From an uncultured virus (IMG/VR IMGVR_UViG_3300044631_002251) (lineage: Duplodnaviria; Heunggongvirae; Uroviricota; Caudoviricetes): a stretch of 20,000 nt of DNA. How positions within the stretch are numbered: the stretch's first letter is position 1; each line of letters opens with the position of its first letter. The notes beneath the pieces are model-generated. The model had not been told where the DNA came from, searched no databases, and was given only the letters and a program-made list of their open reading frames with translations. The DNA lies in the IMG/VR virus record IMGVR_UViG_3300044631_002251, one strand, 5' to 3'. Below are positions 1,332 to 15,764 of the stretch, piece by piece. Position numbers and translations under genes: made by a program.

Positions 1332-1552
1332 AAGCAATCTTAGAATTCAATCTACCTGAAGATCAAAGAAAGTTCGAAATGGCTAATCAGGCTGGTGATA
1401 TGGTAGCTGCTATTGGTCATTTTGAAGATAGACTGCGAAGCTATATAAAATACGGCCACGAATTTAAATCTGCAAATGAAGCTCTTGAATCTATTCGCGC
1501 TCTTTTGCATGAAGAAATCAACCTTAGACGCATAAATATCCATGACTGCTGA
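1328..1552 (+). CDS. Hypothetical phage protein
   Basis: ORF with ATGA overlap, MKAILEFNLPED start. Confidence 0.75.
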   Translation: MKAILEFNLPEDQRKFEMANQAGDMVAAIGHFEDRLRSYIKYGHEFKSANEALESIRALLHEEINLRRINIHDC

Positions 1553-1829
1553 TATACAAACAGAAATAGTTAAACTCTCCGAAGAGTGGTATGAACTTAT
1601 TAGCAGCAATCATCATAAAGATAAAGATTGCCATTGGTACATAGAAACTCGCTGGTCTTATGGCGAAAAACCTGAGTACAGAGTCTTTCATAATGGTTAT
1701 GTTACTGATGATATAGAAATAGCTTGCGACTCTTATGAAACAGCTTTGACAGAATTGCGAACTATTCTTAAACGAGCAATCGAAAGAGAAAAAGAATTAG
1801 AGCAACTACCAAGTTCCAATGACTGGTAA
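1542..1829 (+). CDS. Hypothetical protein
   Basis: Coupled ORF in gene run. Confidence 0.7.
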   Translation: MTADIQTEIVKLSEEWYELISSNHHKDKDCHWYIETRWSYGEKPEYRVFHNGYVTDDIEIACDSYETALTELRTILKRAIEREKELEQLPSSNDW

Positions 1830-4446: not shown

Positions 4447-5132
4447 TTAACGATAAGAATGATAATAAAGTACAGTTAATTGGCTATTACGGTAGCGATC
4501 AAGTTCATGCTTGTTCAGCTTGGACTTCTACAAGTAGAGATTTAAATGAAGATAAGATTAATAGAATTCCTAAACTTCTTAAAATGCTCGCTGATGCAGG
4601 TCATCACACACCTTTTGAAAAATCTTCTCTTCACTTCTTAGTTGATACAGATATTGCTAGTCACATTCATATTATAAAACACCGAGTTGGAACATCTGTT
4701 AATGGCGAATCCGCTCGTTATAAAGAAATTAAAGAAGATAAGTATTTGATTCCTGATGATTGGAAAAATATTGAAGTCACGAATAATCTTGACGTAAATA
4801 GTCAACTTAATTTTCCCGGCAAAAATTGGGCCGATGTGTTAGAAATGTATACGCAAGCTGGCAACAGATTATATCATGCCGCTCTGAAGGATCTTGAGCC
4901 TGTGCTTGGTCGCAAGCGAGCCAAGGAATCTGCTCGTTATTTCAAGACTTATAACTCTCAAATTCAGGCTGATGTTATGTTTAATTGGCGTTCTTTCTAT
5001 CATTTCTTGAGTTTGCGTAACAAGCCTGACGCTCAAAAAGAGATTAGAGAAATTGCCGCCGAGATGTTGCGTCTAGTAAAGAATATTGAAGGTAATCCTT
5101 TTGAGCATACAATCGCCGCATTCGAACTATGA
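4443..5132 (+). CDS. thyX: FAD-dependent thymidylate synthase
   Basis: GHHTPFE, KHR-x7-SARY ThyX motif, NWRSFYHFLSLR...AQKEIR. Confidence 0.93.
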   Translation: MINDKNDNKVQLIGYYGSDQVHACSAWTSTSRDLNEDKINRIPKLLKMLADAGHHTPFEKSSLHFLVDTDIASHIHIIKHRVGTSVNGESARYKEIKEDKYLIPDDWKNIEVTNNLDVNSQLNFPGKNWADVLEMYTQAGNRLYHAALKDLEPVLGRKRAKESARYFKTYNSQIQADVMFNWRSFYHFLSLRNKPDAQKEIREIAAEMLRLVKNIEGNPFEHTIAAFEL

Positions 5133-11404: not shown

Positions 11405-11479
11405 GCTTCGCAAGCATAGATGCCGATGCAGGGGTTTTGTAAACCTCAGAGCAGAGTTGAAGTCTCTGGCGAAGCTCCA
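11405..11479 (+). tRNA. tRNA-Thr(UGU), non-canonical D/T loops
   Basis: GCTTCGC/GCGAAGC acceptor, GGGGT-TTTGTAA-ACCTC, CAGAG-TTGAAGT-CTCTG, encoded CCA. Confidence 0.85.
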
Positions 11480-11485
11480 ATTTTT

Positions 11486-11950
11486 ATGAAAAGAAGTTTG
11501 TATAAAGAAGAAATTCTCAGGTTGAGATCTGAGGGCAAAACATACTCGGAAATTGCGAGTATTTTGAATTGCTCAAGGACATTGGTAACATATTTTCTAA
11601 ATGTGAATTATCAATCAAATCATCAAAATCGATCTAAGACTTTTAAAAAGACTAATAGATTCGCAAAGAAAGAAGAAATAAGAAACAAGTTCGGCGGCAA
11701 ATGTCAAATTTGTTCTTATGACAAGTGTCAAAGCGTACTGAGTTTTCATCATCTTCCCGGTACAAATAAAAAGTTTACTATTTCAGATGCGATAGTAAGA
11801 AAAAGAAAATCAGATGAAGAATTAGTAAATGAGTTGAAAAAATGTATTTTGGTTTGTGCGAATTGTCACGGTGAGATTCATGCGGGGATCACAGAAATTC
11901 CAGAAGGTATCAAGAATCCCTTGACAATCAGTGAAAGTATGGTAGATTGA
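11486..11950 (+). CDS. Free-standing HTH-HNH (Zn) homing endonuclease
   Basis: HTH GKTYSEIASILNCSRT, CQIC...SFHH...CANCHGEIH; real start 11486 because the upstream extension is the tRNA. Confidence 0.85.
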   Translation: MKRSLYKEEILRLRSEGKTYSEIASILNCSRTLVTYFLNVNYQSNHQNRSKTFKKTNRFAKKEEIRNKFGGKCQICSYDKCQSVLSFHHLPGTNKKFTISDAIVRKRKSDEELVNELKKCILVCANCHGEIHAGITEIPEGIKNPLTISESMVD

Positions 11951-12050
11951 TCGCGTTCTTTGGATGCAGCAGGTAGTTGAAGGTAGTTTGAAATTTCTGC
12001 TAAGTCCCCTTGACAATCGAAGAAAGTATGGTAGATTGTCAACGTTCTTT
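11918..12050 (+). repeat. Tandem duplicated promoter cassette (11918-11961 and 12007-12050)
   Basis: CCCTTGACAATC-n3-GAAAGTATGGTAGATTG-n4-CGTTCTTT twice, 37/44 identical; TTGACA-16-TAGATT with TGn. Confidence 0.85.
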
Positions 12051-12056
12051 AAATTT

Positions 12057-12129
12057 TGCGGGTTGGAGAAGAGGTCATCTCGTCACGCTCATAACGTGAA
12101 GATCATCGGTTCGAATCCGATACCCGCTA
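12057..12129 (+). tRNA. tRNA-fMet(CAU)-like initiator tRNA
   Basis: U1xU72 mismatch, GCGGGT/ACCCGC, GAGA/TCTC D stem (A11-U24), CTCATAA loop, TTCGAAT; no encoded CCA. Confidence 0.85.
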
Positions 12130-12138
12130 AGTTTCCCC

Positions 12139-12183
12139 TTGACAAAGGCAACATACTAAAGTAGGATGTTGAAGTTCTTTAAA
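12139..12183 (+). promoter_or_regulatory. sigma70-type promoter plus boxA-like element
   Basis: TTGACA-17-TAGGAT then GTTCTTTAAA. Confidence 0.7.
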
Positions 12184-12185
12184 AT

Positions 12186-12769
12186 GCAATCGTAGCTCAG
12201 TTGGTAGAGCAACAGACTTGATGTTATCGCAAGATAACAAGGGTCCATGTATAGGAAACTGTGCATGAGTAAGGTGTAAATTCGGTGAACGGGTAGCAAT
12301 GACAGATTTCAAAAGAATCTGCAATATGTAAATATATGCCCCCAACGCCGAGCGAAGTTTTAGGCAAACGCTAGAGAAATAATAGAAGAAAGGATTGTGG
12401 GTAAATAGGCGCAATAGTGACCTACCATGATTGCTAGGCTACCCGTCTAGCCACTTAATTGTGATAAATTCTATAGCCTCATAATAAAAAACGTGTAGAG
12501 ACTATAATCACCTATCTAAAATTAGCACGGTAAAGGCATGAGAATCGTCGGGTAAGCTAAACTCGCAAGAGAGGAACCCCTGACAGCTAATTATGATAAA
12601 GGCATAGTCCAGACCACAAACAGTAGTAGCGAGAAATCTGTATCCAATGAAGTTTAGTAATTGGTAATTAGTATTCAATCAATTATGTAACAACATTCTA
12701 CTGGTAGTGAAAACTATAGTGGTAGGTTTAATCTGTGAGTCGCGGGATCGTTCCCCGCCGATTGCACCA
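12186..12769 (+). tRNA. tRNA-Lys(UUU), split by group I intron (exons 12186-12218 and 12727-12769)
   Basis: Joined exons give GCAATCG/CGATTGC acceptor, ACAGA-CT|TTTAA-TCTGT, GCGGG-ATCGTTC-CCCGC, ACCA. Confidence 0.9.
12219..12726 (+). mobile_element. Group I self-splicing intron (IC3, Azoarcus-like), 508 nt, no ORF
   Basis: P AAATTCGGTGAAC 12278, Q AACGCCGAG 12344, R TGTAGAGACTA 12494, S AAGGCATAGTCC 12599; P1 GACU/GGUC with U.G; terminal G. Confidence 0.92.
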
Positions 12770-12792
12770 TTTTTTTCAGTTCTTTTAAATTT

Positions 12793-12863
12793 TAAGCAGT
12801 GAAGTCACTATCATTATAATGTGTGTTATTTATGATAGATGGAAATACGTTTCCCGCTGCTTA
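12793..12863 (+). ncRNA. Candidate small three-way-junction RNA
   Basis: TAAGCAGTG/CGCTGCTTA closing stem, CTATCAT/ATGATAG arm, GGAAA-TACG-TTTCC hairpin. Confidence 0.5.
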
Positions 12864-12871
12864 TTTAATTT

Positions 12872-12942
12872 GAGTAAAGAGTAAGAATATGTTTGTCATT
12901 CGGTAATATATTCTGAAACATAATTGGAATTATACTTTACTC
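12872..12942 (+). ncRNA. Candidate small three-way-junction RNA with loop-E-like motif
   Basis: GAGTAAAG/CTTTACTC closing stem, AGTA-[AGAATAT/ATATTCT]-GAA, ATAAT-TGGA-ATTAT hairpin. Confidence 0.5.
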
Positions 12943-12980
12943 TTTTCGTTCTTTAAAATTTAATATGTAGTAGTTTCTAT

Positions 12981-13053
12981 GGGCCGTTAGCATAATGGTT
13001 TGTGCAGCGAACTCATAATTCGTCGGTTGCTGGTTCAAGTCCAGCACGGCCCA
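12981..13053 (+). tRNA. tRNA-Ile2(CAU, lysidine type); elongator Met less likely
   Basis: GGGCCGT/ACGGCCC, GCGAA-CTCATAA-TTCGT, GCTGG-TTCAAGT-CCAGC as in ileX-type tRNAs; no encoded CCA. Confidence 0.8.
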
Positions 13054-13077
13054 CAGAGGCTATTGCGTATTTTTAGT

Positions 13078-13153
13078 GGTCCCGTAGCTTAACATCAAAA
13101 GCGTTCTCTTTATAAGGGATTGACTGTGGGCGAAAATCCCACCGGGACTACCA
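13078..13153 (+). tRNA. tRNA-Ile(UAU), non-canonical D/T loops
   Basis: GGTCCCG/CGGGACT, TTCTC-TTTATAA-GGGAT, GTGGG-CGAAAAT-CCCAC, ACCA. Confidence 0.75.
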
Positions 13154-13157
13154 AAAC

Positions 13158-13232
13158 GGTCCATTCGTCTAGTGGTTAGGACAGTAGGTTTTCAACCTAT
13201 TAACAAGAGTTCGATTCTCTTATGGACTGCCA
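13158..13232 (+). tRNA. tRNA-Glu(UUC)
   Basis: GGTCCAT/ATGGACT, GTCTAGTGGTTAGGAC D arm, GTAGG-TTTTCAA-CCTAT, GCCA. Confidence 0.92.
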
Positions 13233-13243
13233 AATTTTTCCCC

Positions 13244-13288
13244 TTGACAGGGGCCGCAATCTCTAGTAGATTGTGCGTGTTCTTTAAA
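13244..13288 (+). promoter_or_regulatory. sigma70-type promoter plus boxA-like element
   Basis: TTGACA-17-TAGATT then GTTCTTTAAA. Confidence 0.75.
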
Positions 13289-13292
13289 TTTT

Positions 13293-13761
13293 GGCGCGAT
13301 GATGAAATGGCAGACATAGCGGACTCTTAAGGGTCCATACATGAGAAATTGTGTATGAGTATGGTGTAAATTCGGTGAACGGCTCGTTTCTTGATGAAAA
13401 GCAGCACTAGTGCGGTAGTGAGAAGTCAGATATTTGTAGGTTTCAAACTCACATTAATAAAAGTCGAAACCTTCTAGTCAAGAGACAACCCAACGCCGAG
13501 GCAAGCTAATTGAAGTTCATAAAAAGGACAGATATTAGAAGCTGTAGAGACTATAATCACCTATCTAAATTAATTCGGGGTGAATGCCCTTAAATGGGAG
13601 ATGTTACCTTTGTAAATGAGCTAAACGAAAGCTCTTCGGATTAATATGATAAAGGCATAGTCCAGACCACAAACAGAGAAATCTGGTAGTGAAAACTATA
13701 GTGGCAGGTAAAATCCGCTGGTAGAGATACCGTAAGGGTTCAAGTCCCTTTCGCGCCACCA
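13293..13761 (+). tRNA. tRNA-Leu(UAA), split by group I intron (exons 13293-13325 and 13709-13761)
   Basis: GGCGCGA/TCGCGCC, GCGGA-CT|TAAAA-TCCGC, long variable arm GGTA-GAGA-TACC, TTCAAGT, ACCA. Confidence 0.9.
13326..13708 (+). mobile_element. Group I self-splicing intron (IC3, Azoarcus-like), 383 nt, no ORF
   Basis: P 13368, Q 13492, R 13543, S 13652 identical to the Lys intron; P1 GGACUC/GGGUCC with U.G; terminal G. Confidence 0.92.
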
Positions 13762-13784
13762 TTTTTGTTCTTTTATAAAATTTT

Positions 13785-14390
13785 TCCAATAAGATGCATC
13801 CAGCTTCCAAGAGCAAACCCATGTTAACAGGACTTGGTAAATCCGTGTTATGGACGGCAGATGAGGAAAAATTGCGGTTTGGGAGTAATTACCCAAGCCG
13901 CAATACAATTTTGCAGCAATGAGGGCAGTCGTCTACATAAGACGTAGTTTGGGGTAGCCAGTGAAAAGCCTCTCGGAAAGGATCTGGTAGAAACTAGGGC
14001 AGAGATCAAATTAAAAAATAGTGCTTTTCGAACTATTTGGATTGATTGAAGCCGATATCTAGTTGGGAACACATCAAGCAACTGAACGACCTGATCTGCA
14101 AAAAACATACAGTGCGCCCAAGCGATCTTGTTTTGAGTCGCTTTACACTGAGTCAACAATGGGCAATAATTTTATTCGATGTCAGCAGACTCACGATGCT
14201 GAAAAAAGATACGCCGATTGCAAGCGGCGTAGTCGTGGAGAGTGAGTGGGTTGATCTATGCAAGATATCGTGTTATAGATTATAATAAGCTCTGAAGGTT
14301 TTCCCGTAAACCAACATCGAATATATTTCTCATTAGAAGGACAATGGGCTTCATGCCCCGTTCTGTAAAAAGACTTACTTCTAGTGGGAT
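13785..14390 (+). ncRNA. Large structured noncoding RNA candidate (GOLLD/ROOL-like or new class)
   Basis: ~600 nt, GC-richer than flanks, no credible ORF, many hairpins plus long-range and crossing helices, directly after tRNA-Leu; ends approximate. Confidence 0.7.
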
Positions 14391-14412
14391 TTTAATTTTT
14401 TTGAAAAAGCTG

Positions 14413-14440
14413 TTGACTTCTTGGAAAAAGCTGATAAAGT
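14413..14440 (+). promoter_or_regulatory. sigma70-type promoter with extended -10
   Basis: TTGACT-16-TAAAGT with TGn; ATG at 14450. Confidence 0.7.
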
Positions 14441-14449
14441 ATACCCACA

Positions 14450-14758
14450 ATGAATACGAAATTGTTTGTTCTATTAATTGCTGCTACCTCTTTGGTTGGA
14501 TGCCGCAGAGAAAATGATCCAGAAACTCGCGCAATCAATCAAGTAAATGCAAATGCGCCTGAATTTGTTGCCAATACTCCAAAAGGAAAATTGTATCGAA
14601 TTATTATCGATATAGGTGCGGGTCGTCACGAAGATCGTATATATTACTTCGAGAATAGCAATGAAGTGAACATAAATAAAACAATTCAATCTGGAAAAAC
14701 AAGTCGCACCGAAACTTCCGTAATTATCGACGGAAAAGAGTATATTCTCAAACAATAA
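14450..14758 (+). CDS. Putative lipoprotein
   Basis: MNTKLFVLLIAATSLVGC signal peptide with lipobox LVGC. Confidence 0.78.
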   Translation: MNTKLFVLLIAATSLVGCRRENDPETRAINQVNANAPEFVANTPKGKLYRIIIDIGAGRHEDRIYYFENSNEVNINKTIQSGKTSRTETSVIIDGKEYILKQ

Positions 14759-14770
14759 TTAAAATAAAAC

Positions 14771-14923
14771 ATGAAAGAAACTTCTATCAAATACGGAATC
14801 AATATTGGCAACGCATTAGCTGTTGCTATCAGTTGGAGCGTCAATAAGAGCATCCTCTGGGCTATTCTTCATGGATTGTTTGGTTGGTTTTATGTGATTT
14901 ACTACGCAATTGTTCGGGATTGA
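14771..14923 (+). CDS. Small membrane protein (50 aa, not in ORF track)
   Basis: MKETSIKYGINIGNALAVAISWSVNKSILWAILHGLFGWFYVIYYAIVRD. Confidence 0.8.
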   Translation: MKETSIKYGINIGNALAVAISWSVNKSILWAILHGLFGWFYVIYYAIVRD

Positions 14924-14940
14924 GTAGTTAAAAAAACCCC

Positions 14941-14968
14941 TTGACTTTTTCTAAAACCCTGATAGGAT
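14941..14968 (+). promoter_or_regulatory. sigma70-type promoter with extended -10
   Basis: TTGACT-16-TAGGAT with TGn; ATG at 14978. Confidence 0.7.
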
Positions 14969-14977
14969 GTTTGCACG

Positions 14978-15037
14978 ATGAAAATTGAAGTGGATCACTC
15001 GGAAATTGTTTGGAATTCTTTTTCAAAAAACTATTGA
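14978..15037 (+). CDS. 19-aa mini-ORF or truncated gene remnant
   Basis: MKIEVDHSEIVWNSFSKNY at the same promoter-ATG spacing as 14450; stop lies in the next -35 box. Confidence 0.4.
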   Translation: MKIEVDHSEIVWNSFSKNY

Positions 15038-15061
15038 CAATACTATTATCGAGTATAAGAT
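15034..15061 (+). promoter_or_regulatory. sigma70-type promoter for tRNA-Arg/Asn
   Basis: TTGACA-16-TAAGAT. Confidence 0.7.
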
Positions 15062-15076
15062 AGTTGTAGATTTTAC

Positions 15077-15153
15077 GTTCCCGTAGCTCAGTTGGATAGA
15101 GCATCCGCCTTCTAAGCGGATGGTCGCAGGTTCAAATCCTGCCGGGAACGCCA
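15077..15153 (+). tRNA. tRNA-Arg(UCU)
   Basis: Canonical cloverleaf, TCCGC-CTTCTAA-GCGGA, A20, GCCA. Confidence 0.95.
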
Positions 15154-15262: not shown

Positions 15263-15289
15263 GTGTATTAACTATAATAGTTAATACAT
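15263..15289 (+). promoter_or_regulatory. Hairpin covering the HNH translation start, with GTGTA motif in its 5' arm
   Basis: TGTATTAACTA-TAA-TAGTTAATACA perfect 11-bp inverted repeat ending on the A of ATG. Confidence 0.65.
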
Positions 15290-15764
15290 GGTATTATCTG
15301 ATATAGTAAAACTTAAAAGAATAAAAGCTGGTCTCAGAACCATTACTGATGCCGAAATAAAAGAAATACAAGCTTTTTATGATGAAGGCAATGGTTTAAC
15401 AGCTTGTCAACAAAAATATGGCTATTGTCGAGGTACGTTAATTAAATATTTAAAAACAAGACCTCAATCCAAATCATCTATTTCTGACGAACAAAAGAAA
15501 AAGAATAAAAGCAAAGCTGTTGTAGCTTGGAGAATTAGAGCGAAGCAAGCTTTAGTAGATTATAAAGGTGGTAAATGTATTGTTTGCGGATATAATAGAT
15601 ACATAGGAAATTTGACTTTTCATCATTTAGATCCAAATGAAAAAGAATTTCAAATTAGTGGTAAATCTATTTCTTTGCACAAGCTAAAAGTTGAAGCTGA
15701 TAAATGCGCTCTATTATGTCATTTATGTCATGGAGAGCTTCATGCAGGTCTGATTAAATTATAA
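15288..15764 (+). CDS. Free-standing HTH-HNH (Zn) homing endonuclease
   Basis: N-terminal HTH-like region, GGKCIVCGY...TFHH...CHLCHGELHAG; paralog of 11486-11950. Confidence 0.85.
   Translation: MVLSDIVKLKRIKAGLRTITDAEIKEIQAFYDEGNGLTACQQKYGYCRGTLIKYLKTRPQSKSSISDEQKKKNKSKAVVAWRIRAKQALVDYKGGKCIVCGYNRYIGNLTFHHLDPNEKEFQISGKSISLHKLKVEADKCALLCHLCHGELHAGLIKL

Follow-up and report, generated by a model that had tools for sequence, protein, structure and literature searches.

What are the long inserts which interrupt two tRNA genes in the genome of a phage, and how would mature tRNAs be obtained from such genes? The question is raised by a stretch of 20,000 nucleotides (nt) from an uncultured virus of the class Caudoviricetes (IMG/VR record IMGVR_UViG_3300044631_002251), which we will call the window. 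It contains a cluster of nine tRNA genes, two of which, tRNA-Lys(UUU) and tRNA-Leu(UAA), are split. An initial annotation, made from the sequence alone, proposed that the inserts are two related group I introns without open reading frames (ORFs), placed between positions 33 and 34 of the tRNA (33/34), and that they belong to a lineage which spreads among phage tRNA genes. Our analysis leads to a similar answer: It is very probable that this is the tRNA cluster of an uncultivated freshwater phage, whose Lys(UUU) and Leu(UAA) genes are split between U33 and U34 by self-splicing group I introns lacking ORFs.

Once the inserts are excised in silico, ARAGORN recognizes a 76-nt tRNA-Lys(ttt) and an 86-nt tRNA-Leu(taa) with a long variable arm. 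Complete cloverleafs are only obtained without the inserts of 508 and 383 nt, and the coordinates and lengths proposed for them (Table 1) are exact. Both inserts are found between U33 and U34 of the anticodon loop. The junction of the Leu gene is unique, as no alternative pair of cut sites yields the same product. For the Lys gene there is a sole alternative, shifted one base to the right, in which case the insert would end with T and not with G. In the window, six tRNA genes are called by default ARAGORN and seven by the Rfam tRNA model, and neither of the split genes is among them: Standard scanners do overlook both, as had been anticipated. According to a passage of the tRNAscan-SE 2.0 paper, that program is not meant for the detection of group I introns. 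The intron mode of ARAGORN recovers tRNA-Lys with the exact insert, i(34,508). At the Leu locus, this mode calls a misplaced Phe(aaa), i(31,385), which we have replaced by an enumeration of the possible junctions. There are no plus strand ORFs of 40 or more amino acids within either insert, and the three minus strand ORFs which overlap them have no Pfam match, so a homing endonuclease encoded in the introns is rejected. We should also note that the T-loop of tRNA-Lys (12753–12759) is ATCGTTC, where TTCRANY is usual. The same loop is kept in two other records with this gene, G001 and L187, which are described below.

The two inserts are 64% identical across 374 aligned positions and the identities are clustered in blocks. 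Identical in both are the guide GGGTCC, the P4 strands (TTCGGTG and CGCCGAG), GTAGAGACTA (J6/7-P7) followed by the 3' strand of P3, TAGTCC (P7'), the base of P8 (ATCTAAA and TATGAT) and the terminal G. P2 has nine base pairs and a GAAA loop in each insert; four of these pairs differ between the inserts, yet they stay paired. P9 is three-way in both. All the shared features listed in the initial annotation are thus present in the two inserts: identical blocks, a GAAA loop in L2, a receptor-like motif in P8, a U33·G pair and a terminal G. Both introns can form every core helix, and the P3–P9 core, including the pseudoknot of P3 and P7, shows covariation across the family of related introns. P7 (GACTA/TAGTC) is invariant in this family. 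In P8, most relatives have CCUAA../UAUGG, while the window introns have UCUAA../UAUGA, a predicted receptor at the level of the sequence. This helix covaries from C-G to U-A at alignment columns 183 and 205 (CG 23, UA 17). Two other kinds of intron have been considered. An intron of the archaeal type, or one spliced by proteins, is rejected, since the core of the inserts is that of group I; a group II intron is also rejected, as no match has been found.

The splice sites are defined by the pairing between exon and guide. In both genes, the GACU at the end of the 5' exon pairs with GGUC in the guide, so that U33 is opposite a G: P1 has this U·G wobble and four to five further pairs. A G is found directly before each of the 3' splice sites. 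A related viral contig, L164, is informative on the pairing. It has the same upstream tRNA-Met and promoter, followed by a different tRNA-Lys(UUU), whose 272-nt intron has the same P5 extension as the Lys intron of the window. Its exon end is GCCU and its guide GGGC: With respect to the window, an A-U pair has been replaced by C-G, a compensatory change. The guide also tracks the exon when other hosts of the family are compared: It is GAGU for GACUU in tRNA-Leu interrupted at 34/35, GGUC for GACU at 33/34, GGGC for GCCU in tRNA-Arg and GCAGC for GCUGU in tRNA-Asn.

Table 1. Features of the two split tRNA genes, their surroundings and related introns in deposited phages. Positions are those of the window unless another record is named. 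R1 is the covariance model described in the text.
Feature	Position	Strand	Remarks
tRNA-Lys(UUU) 5' exon	12186–12218	+	tRNA positions 1–33, last base U33 (ARAGORN)
Lys group I intron	12219–12726	+	508 nt, no ORF, terminal G at 12726
tRNA-Lys(UUU) 3' exon	12727–12769	+	Opens with anticodon UUU; encoded CCA at its end
Lys intron P1	12215–12219 with 12241–12245	+	Splice-site pair U12218·G12242
Lys intron extra L1 hairpin	12222–12240	+	GCAA loop
Lys intron P2	12246–12267	+	GAAA loop 12255–12258
Lys intron P3	12272–12276/12509–12513	+	
Lys intron P4	12281–12287/12346–12352	+	P5 extension about 12291–12341
Lys intron P6 insertion	12353–12494	+	
Lys intron J6/7-P7	12495–12504	+	Pairs with 12605–12610
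Lys intron P8	12513–12597	+	Receptor-like ATCTAAA/TATGAT
Lys intron P9	12612–12722	+	Contains a 76-nt insertion
tRNA-Leu(UAA) 5' exon	13293–13325	+	tRNA positions 1–33, last base U33
Leu group I intron	13326–13708	+	383 nt, no ORF, terminal G at 13708
tRNA-Leu(UAA) 3' exon	13709–13761	+	Opens with anticodon UAA; long variable arm; encoded CCA
Leu intron P1	13321–13326 with 13331–13336	+	Splice-site pair U13325·G13332
Leu intron P2	13336–13357	+	GAAA loop 13345–13348
Leu intron P3	13363–13366/13558–13561	+	
Leu intron P4	13371–13377/13494–13500	+	P5 extension about 13381–13491
Leu intron P6	13500–13543	+	
Leu intron J6/7-P7	13544–13553	+	Pairs with 13658–13663
Leu intron P8	13562–13650	+	
Leu intron P9	13665–13704	+	
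Circular excised Leu intron	13328–13708	+	G13708 joined to U13328; first two intron bases lost
Sigma-70-like promoter	12139–12167	+	TTGACA, 17 nt, TAGGAT; about 20 nt upstream of tRNA-Lys; consensus match
Sigma-70-like promoter	13244–13272	+	TTGACA, 17 nt, TAGATT; upstream of tRNA-Leu; conserved in G001; consensus match
Free-standing HNH endonuclease gene	11420–11950	+	Head of the tRNA cluster; PHROG HNH families, E 9e-25; weak helix-turn-helix matches in Pfam
Free-standing HNH endonuclease gene	15288–15764	+	Between tRNA-Asn and tRNA-Tyr; E 2.7e-23
Intron in tRNA-Leu(UAA) of LR756501 (735-kb uncultured phage, without annotation)	L273, 360–650		34/35; 205 nt; R1 199.5 bits, the best of all
Intron in unannotated tRNA-Leu(UAA) of Agrobacterium phage Atu_ph07	MF403008, about 112.9–113.2 kb; L009, 1253–1614		34/35; 278 nt; R1 163 bits
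Intron in tRNA-Arg(CCU) of Microcoleus phage My-WqHQDG	OR578706; L275, 413–698		213 nt, 3' of the anticodon by ARAGORN; R1 134 bits
Intron in capsid gene of Pelagibacter phage HTVC120P	L274, 551–753		R1 152 bits
Intron in DnaB helicase gene of Kolpuevirus 'frurule'	L010, about 1340–1568		With a GIY-YIG ORF; R1 91.5 bits

Covariance models allow an independent view of the core. The Rfam model RF00028 (Intron_gpI), whose gathering score is 50 bits, aligns end to end with both introns, Leu reaching 30.3 bits (E 2e-5) and Lys 13.2 bits (E 2.8). When the window is scanned at the gathering thresholds of Rfam, no group I match is found. According to Williams 2020, none of the 12 seeds of RF00028 is bacterial; at the cut-offs of 18–20 bits applied in that work, the Leu intron passes and the Lys intron fails. 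Because these scores are below the threshold and the seeds of RF00028 hold no bacterial intron, we have built a model from sequences outside the window. This model, R1, contains 40 compact (191–235 nt) tRNA introns from viral contigs, from which the window was excluded. In the alignment of these introns, RNAalifold recovers P2, P3, P4, P5, P6, P8 and P9 with a total of 42 pairs, 29 of which are supported by compensatory changes. When R1 is run on the whole window with its filters off, the Leu intron is matched at 13451–13708 (62.6 bits, E 1.6e-15) and the Lys intron at 12475–12726 (48.8 bits, E 6.4e-12) and also in its 5' half (24.3 bits, E 1.8e-5). After these, the best match has E 0.085, so only the two intron loci stand out. 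Long insertions in P5, P6 and P8 of the window introns, and for Lys also in L1 and P9, split the alignments. Standard pairs are found at 39 of the 42 family positions in the Lys intron and at 37 in the Leu intron; the non-standard ones come from shifts of a single alignment column in P8 and P3, for which a correct register is available. The check with a group I model suggested in the initial annotation has therefore two outcomes: R1 matches both inserts, RF00028 leaves both below its threshold. Taken together, R1, the folding of the exons and the pairing map uphold the group I identity, the 33/34 site, the U33·G pair and the terminal G. Judging from their sequences, the inserts are homologous to bacterial tRNA introns and belong to a family classed as IC3 in the literature.

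RNA from lakes gives evidence of activity. Of the sampled words of 12100–13800, 14 lake or freshwater DNA runs each contain at least 94%, and six lake metatranscriptome runs contain 25–41%. We have compared contigs of four metatranscriptome runs (assembled contigs, not raw reads) with the 12000–13900 region. All four runs have zero-mismatch contigs on the intron bodies, at 12229–12629 and at 13328–13708 or parts of the latter. In two of the four runs (X15 and X16), a 123-nt contig joins 13708 to 13328, its shorter side covering 59 nt. Since a linear phage genome cannot yield such a joint, it corresponds to the excised Leu intron in circular form. An RNA contig ends the Leu intron exactly at 13708, the predicted terminal G. 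The 3' end of the Leu intron is thus fixed, and these assembled contigs point to ribozyme activity in nature. In a passage of PMC13168695, the Azoarcus intron is described as circularising between its bases 2 and 3, which is the same register as in the joint of the Leu intron. Contigs of the Lys intron stop at 12621–12629, probably owing to a block of about 33 nt common to both introns. The Lys contigs of two runs share an end at 12229, at most a weak indication. RNA contigs are absent on spacers, exons and 12630–12726, and this missing cover is not evidence of absence; the exons are only covered by 18–24-nt pieces of foreign tRNA contigs of high depth. Some contigs of X16 and X18 diverge after the shared 3' core (at window positions 13704 and 13675). 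They correspond to related tRNA introns found as RNA in the same lakes, and one of these diverging contigs continues into a 34/35 Leu-type exon.

The nearest record to the window is G001, an IMG/VR contig of 51 kb, whose Lys gene and intron are 100% identical over 610 nt. In the Leu slot, after the same promoter, G001 has an unrelated and uninterrupted 76-nt tRNA(UAA) (about 4974–5049; L001 75–150, minus strand): The whole Leu cassette therefore varies between close relatives. This 76-nt tRNA has no long variable arm, and several intron-split viral 'Leu(taa)' tRNAs are likewise of only 73–77 nt (L027, L033, L036, L052 and L054). The Lys gene with its 508-nt intron is also carried by L187. A scan of viral sequences with the Lys-type 3' pattern gave 60 matches, 57 of them due to chance. 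In order to place the introns, we have aligned 203 core columns and obtained a midpoint-rooted FastTree phylogeny of 70 unique sequences, out of 90 assigned ones, among those of at most 560 nt. With a support of 0.895, the Lys and Leu introns group as sisters, within a clade which contains only 33/34 introns, from tRNA(CAU) (L028, L040 and L088) and tRNA-Leu(UAA) (L036 and L056). Over the whole tree, the host tRNA and the insertion site switch many times. This placement, together with the match of the guide to the common GACU, backs the spread between tRNA genes within a phage lineage. Since both tRNAs share the GACU target, it is most likely that one intron seeded the other, and they would be sister copies in a 33/34 lineage of tRNA-Met(CAU) and tRNA-Leu(UAA). 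Candidate routes for such a transfer are reverse splicing, recombination, or homing aided by the neighbouring HNH endonucleases.

Several observations weigh against two active introns of common origin. Both remain under the gathering score of RF00028, and the same model finds no match in G001 at E 0.01. The R1 scores of the window introns are well under those of the compact relatives (134–199 bits), owing to the insertions in P5, P6, P8 and P9, and insertions of this size could slow folding or make it dependent on proteins. The T-loop of tRNA-Lys is atypical. The circle joint is ambiguous by three bases, as TAA follows both 13708 and 13327, and comes from assembled contigs. In the four RNA runs, no contig crosses a ligated exon-exon junction, so that 5' splice sites and mature tRNAs are not directly seen, and there is no circle joint for the Lys intron. 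Finally, the cores of the Lys and Leu introns are just 79.4% identical over the 203 columns, the Lys intron is marginally nearer to L040 (81.6%), and the tree is built from short sequences. The duplication is therefore not recent.

Some of these observations would also fit decay: One or both inserts might be old introns which no longer splice, the tRNA genes would be pseudogenes and the RNA an unprocessed or partly degraded transcript. The subthreshold Rfam scores, a core broken by large peripheral insertions, the odd T-loop of tRNA-Lys, and RNA contigs with neither exon-exon junction nor Lys circle are what such a proposal would explain. We consider it very unlikely, as a circular Leu intron which ends exactly at the terminal G needs an active ribozyme, every core helix can be formed and each gene keeps its own promoter. 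G001 has an identical Lys gene and intron, L187 carries them too, and in L164 P1 is preserved by a compensatory change.

Self-splicing remains our preferred explanation, and the steps would be as follows. Each split gene would be transcribed from its own sigma-70-like promoter. In the transcript, the guide GGGUCC would pair with tRNA nucleotides 30–33 (GACU), which would form P1 with the U33·G wobble at the splice site. A free guanosine would attack the 5' splice site at this wobble; the terminal G would then take the same site and the exons would be ligated, which would restore the anticodon loop. The freed intron would circularise by attack of its terminal G after intron base 2. We infer this two-step chemistry, as well as the splicing of the Lys intron and the use of the mature tRNAs. 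The mechanism proposed is canonical, the finding is real and the reading of the initial annotation is correct.

The phage-type genes of the window, identified with PHROG, include a DNA methyltransferase, a thymidylate synthase, a clamp loader and three HNH endonucleases, two of which bracket the tRNA cluster or lie inside it. The enzyme encoded at the head of the cluster is, from its position, a possible homing enzyme acting in trans. Both split genes, and other tRNAs too, are preceded at a distance of about 20 nt by promoter-like sites. They are part of a unit with five copies, the two shown in Table 1 and those at 11921–11948, 12010–12037 and 15034–15061, which consists of a C-run, TTGACA, 16–17 nt and TAGATT, TAGGAT or TAAGAT. 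The unit is also found in G001 and L164. Those at 12010, 12139 and 13244 are followed by a conserved TTCTTTAAA just before the 5' end of the tRNA.

Is it possible that the window is bacterial DNA on a misclassified contig, and that these are ordinary bacterial tRNA introns? Some IMG/VR contigs are indeed misclassified, and the closest bacterial introns come from lake Verrucomicrobiota and Bacteroidota genomes assembled from metagenomes. A bacterial origin is nevertheless extremely unlikely for a region of dense short ORFs which match phage families, with a cluster of nine tRNAs, whose nearest record is an IMG/VR virus contig; in addition, the cultured phage Atu_ph07 has the same intron family.

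Two other features of the cluster may be mentioned. A tRNA gene at 13078–13150 (plus strand) is detected by the Rfam model alone (50.4 bits), ARAGORN giving no call there. Its T-loop is unusual, and with UAU in the anticodon loop this would be a tRNA-Ile type reading AUA. The region downstream of tRNA-Leu (13782–15019) has only short putative ORFs. Its 13907–14167 segment is 97% identical in G001, while 14168–15019 has no counterpart there. A search of 13760–15100 with Rfam at E 1 gave no match. This region could hold novel RNA or small genes.

Another alternative concerns the role of the introns, which might serve the phage: They could delay or gate the supply of tRNA, or shield the gene or its precursor from nucleases which act on the anticodon loop, for instance anticodon nucleases of the host or homing endonucleases which cleave tRNA genes lacking an intron. 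PrrC, an anticodon nuclease, cleaves tRNA-Lys on the 5' side of the wobble base, and defences which target tRNA can be countered by tRNA-Lys genes of phages. In favour of such a role, the insertion is at the anticodon loop, just before the wobble base, the tRNA cluster is flanked by HNH genes and the intron is retained in several related phages. The family is found in at least six other classes of anticodon and site and also in protein-coding genes, which fits selfish spread, and G001 manages without the Leu intron. We regard a service to the phage as very unlikely.

The window introns may be compared with several known systems. Williams 2020 lists four classical bacterial types, Leu.3Ug, Arg.5Ug, fMet.2Ug and Ile2.5Ug, all of them IC3, and raises the number of bacterial types to 21; in the text of that paper, as distinct from its type tables, phages are not mentioned. 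The sites given in the initial annotation for the classical introns, 34/35 for Leu and 33/34 for fMet, agree with that work (Leu.3Ug, CUU/AAAA, and fMet.2Ug). The cyanobacterial tRNA-fMet intron shares with ours the 33/34 site, the U at -1 and the terminal G. The introns closest to those of the window are found in tRNA(CAU) at 33/34, both in viral contigs (L028, L040 and L088) and in metagenome-assembled genomes (MAGs). The differences are in the hosts, which in the window are tRNA-Lys(UUU) and tRNA-Leu(UAA) of a phage and not initiator tRNA-Met, and in the introns themselves, which have no ORF and have large insertions in P5, P6, P8 and P9. The Synechocystis fMet intron encodes an endonuclease. 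The Leu.3Ug intron of cyanobacteria and plastids shares host tRNA and anticodon with the window Leu intron, and its core is of the same family. In fact, R1 is mostly built from viral 34/35 Leu introns and detects the window introns. The window Leu intron is one base upstream, at 33/34 instead of U34/A35, and its guide is different: GGGUCC with GACU, as against GAGU with GACUU in Leu.3Ug. The classic 34/35 form is carried by Atu_ph07 and LR756501.

The tRNA-Ile intron of Azoarcus sp. BH72 (205 nt), the structural model of IC3, is a compact group I intron, likewise in a tRNA anticodon loop; according to the initial annotation, the blocks of the inserts would match it. It interrupts position 36/37 (Ile2.5Ug), and its length is exceeded 1.9-fold and 2.5-fold by the two introns of the window. 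The Azoarcus intron has a GAAA loop in L2 and a receptor in P8, of which the window introns have putative equivalents at the level of the sequence. Among phages, group I introns occur in protein genes: td, nrdB and nrdD of T4, the DNA polymerase genes of SPO1 and Bastille, the terminase gene of LL-H, and genes of crAss-like phages. They are likewise self-splicing group I introns, and those in the Kolpuevirus DnaB and HTVC120P capsid genes share the core of the window introns. They interrupt mRNAs, often with an endonuclease ORF, whereas the window introns are in tRNA genes and have none. Cyanophage S-PM2 has an ORF-less psbA intron and the free-standing endonuclease F-CphI, a case of 'collaborative homing'. 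The window likewise has ORF-less introns and a free-standing endonuclease gene near an interrupted gene, with a link between them which is positional only. According to a 2014 review (PMC3984707), phages have many tRNA genes, yet every phage intron known at that time was in a protein-coding gene. Full-text literature searches, with subscription journals largely outside their reach, gave no description of a phage tRNA gene split by a group I intron.

In order to ascertain the extent of the family, we have searched IMG/VR with an exact 17-mer of the 3' core. At least 119 stretches contain it, a number which is not de-duplicated and is biased by the use of an exact word. Each upstream T was joined to the G's found after the conserved 3' motif, and a tRNA was sought across the junction with ARAGORN. 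A simple score of P1 length failed to separate neighbouring junction candidates, so we have taken the real anticodon at the shortest intron length, in a fixed order of preference; L055 was assigned to Asn by hand. A tRNA was obtained at 89 of the 119 loci listed and 87 were assigned. Most of these, 58, are Leu(UAA) genes interrupted at 34/35, followed by Met(CAU) at 33/34 with 15 loci. There are three loci each of Arg(UCU) at 33/34, Arg(UCU) at 34/35, Leu(UAA) at 33/34 and Asn(GUU) at 35/36, and two of Glu(UUC) at 34/35 (L069 and L127). The remaining 32 listed loci have protein-coding hosts, are ambiguous or have flanks too short to be judged. The survey of phage contigs for the same core which had been suggested thus shows that tRNA introns are common, and the window is not a singular case.

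Some of these loci have features of their own. L064 has a 93-nt tRNA with a UCA anticodon and a 346-nt intron, a possible opal suppressor or selenocysteine-like tRNA. The host of L015, with an intron of 534–556 nt, is ambiguous. In L013, L025, L075, L076, L102, L116 and L122 the intron core is followed by the same protein-coding exon (AAAGGC..., in an open frame), which indicates a recurrent insertion in one conserved phage gene.

The family is also found in deposited phages, as shown in Table 1. The record of Atu_ph07 annotates a 38 amino acid hypothetical protein (AUZ94936.1) across the 3' end of the intron and the 3' exon, while the GenBank entry of Microcoleus phage My-WqHQDG already annotates a 286-nt tRNA-Arg. 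The same core is present in DnaB and capsid genes, therefore the lineage crosses between tRNA and mRNA hosts. With regard to bacteria, a 16-mer specific to the sub-lineage of the window gave 83 matches when one genome per prokaryote species was searched, and 78 of them failed a filter for the core motif. Three of the other five are tRNA(CAU) introns at 33/34, found in Verrucomicrobiota, Opitutaceae and Sediminibacterium MAGs, with R1 scores of 132–134 bits.

In summary, the new aspects of this case are the phage setting, tRNA-Lys(UUU) as a host and tRNA-Leu(UAA) interrupted at 33/34, in comparison with the text of Williams 2020, its type tables being apart. Also new are the evidence that the intron RNA occurs in nature as a circle, and how widely phage tRNA genes carry introns of this family. 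The 2014 generalisation that phage introns are confined to protein-coding genes no longer holds, in view of the window pair, of the 87 assigned loci among the 119 listed, and of the deposited phages. Phage tRNA inventories have been under-counted: Default finders miss split genes, and a spurious protein has been annotated in Atu_ph07. In a single phage lineage the host tRNA has changed and the guide has changed to match it, which makes the lateral movement of tRNA introns testable. Natural circular intron RNA, with compact (about 200 nt) and expanded (383–508 nt) variants, is material for ribozyme and circular-RNA engineering. As a tentative proposal, which we hold to be possible and no firmer than that, phage tRNA clusters might be a large overlooked reservoir and hub, where introns hop between isoacceptors and between adjacent anticodon-loop sites by re-matching their short guides to the anticodon stem, and phages might ferry them between bacterial phyla. 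If this is true, it would explain the patchy distribution and lateral transfer, long debated, of bacterial tRNA-Leu, tRNA-fMet and other introns, and it would overturn the textbook view of phage introns as elements of protein-coding genes only.

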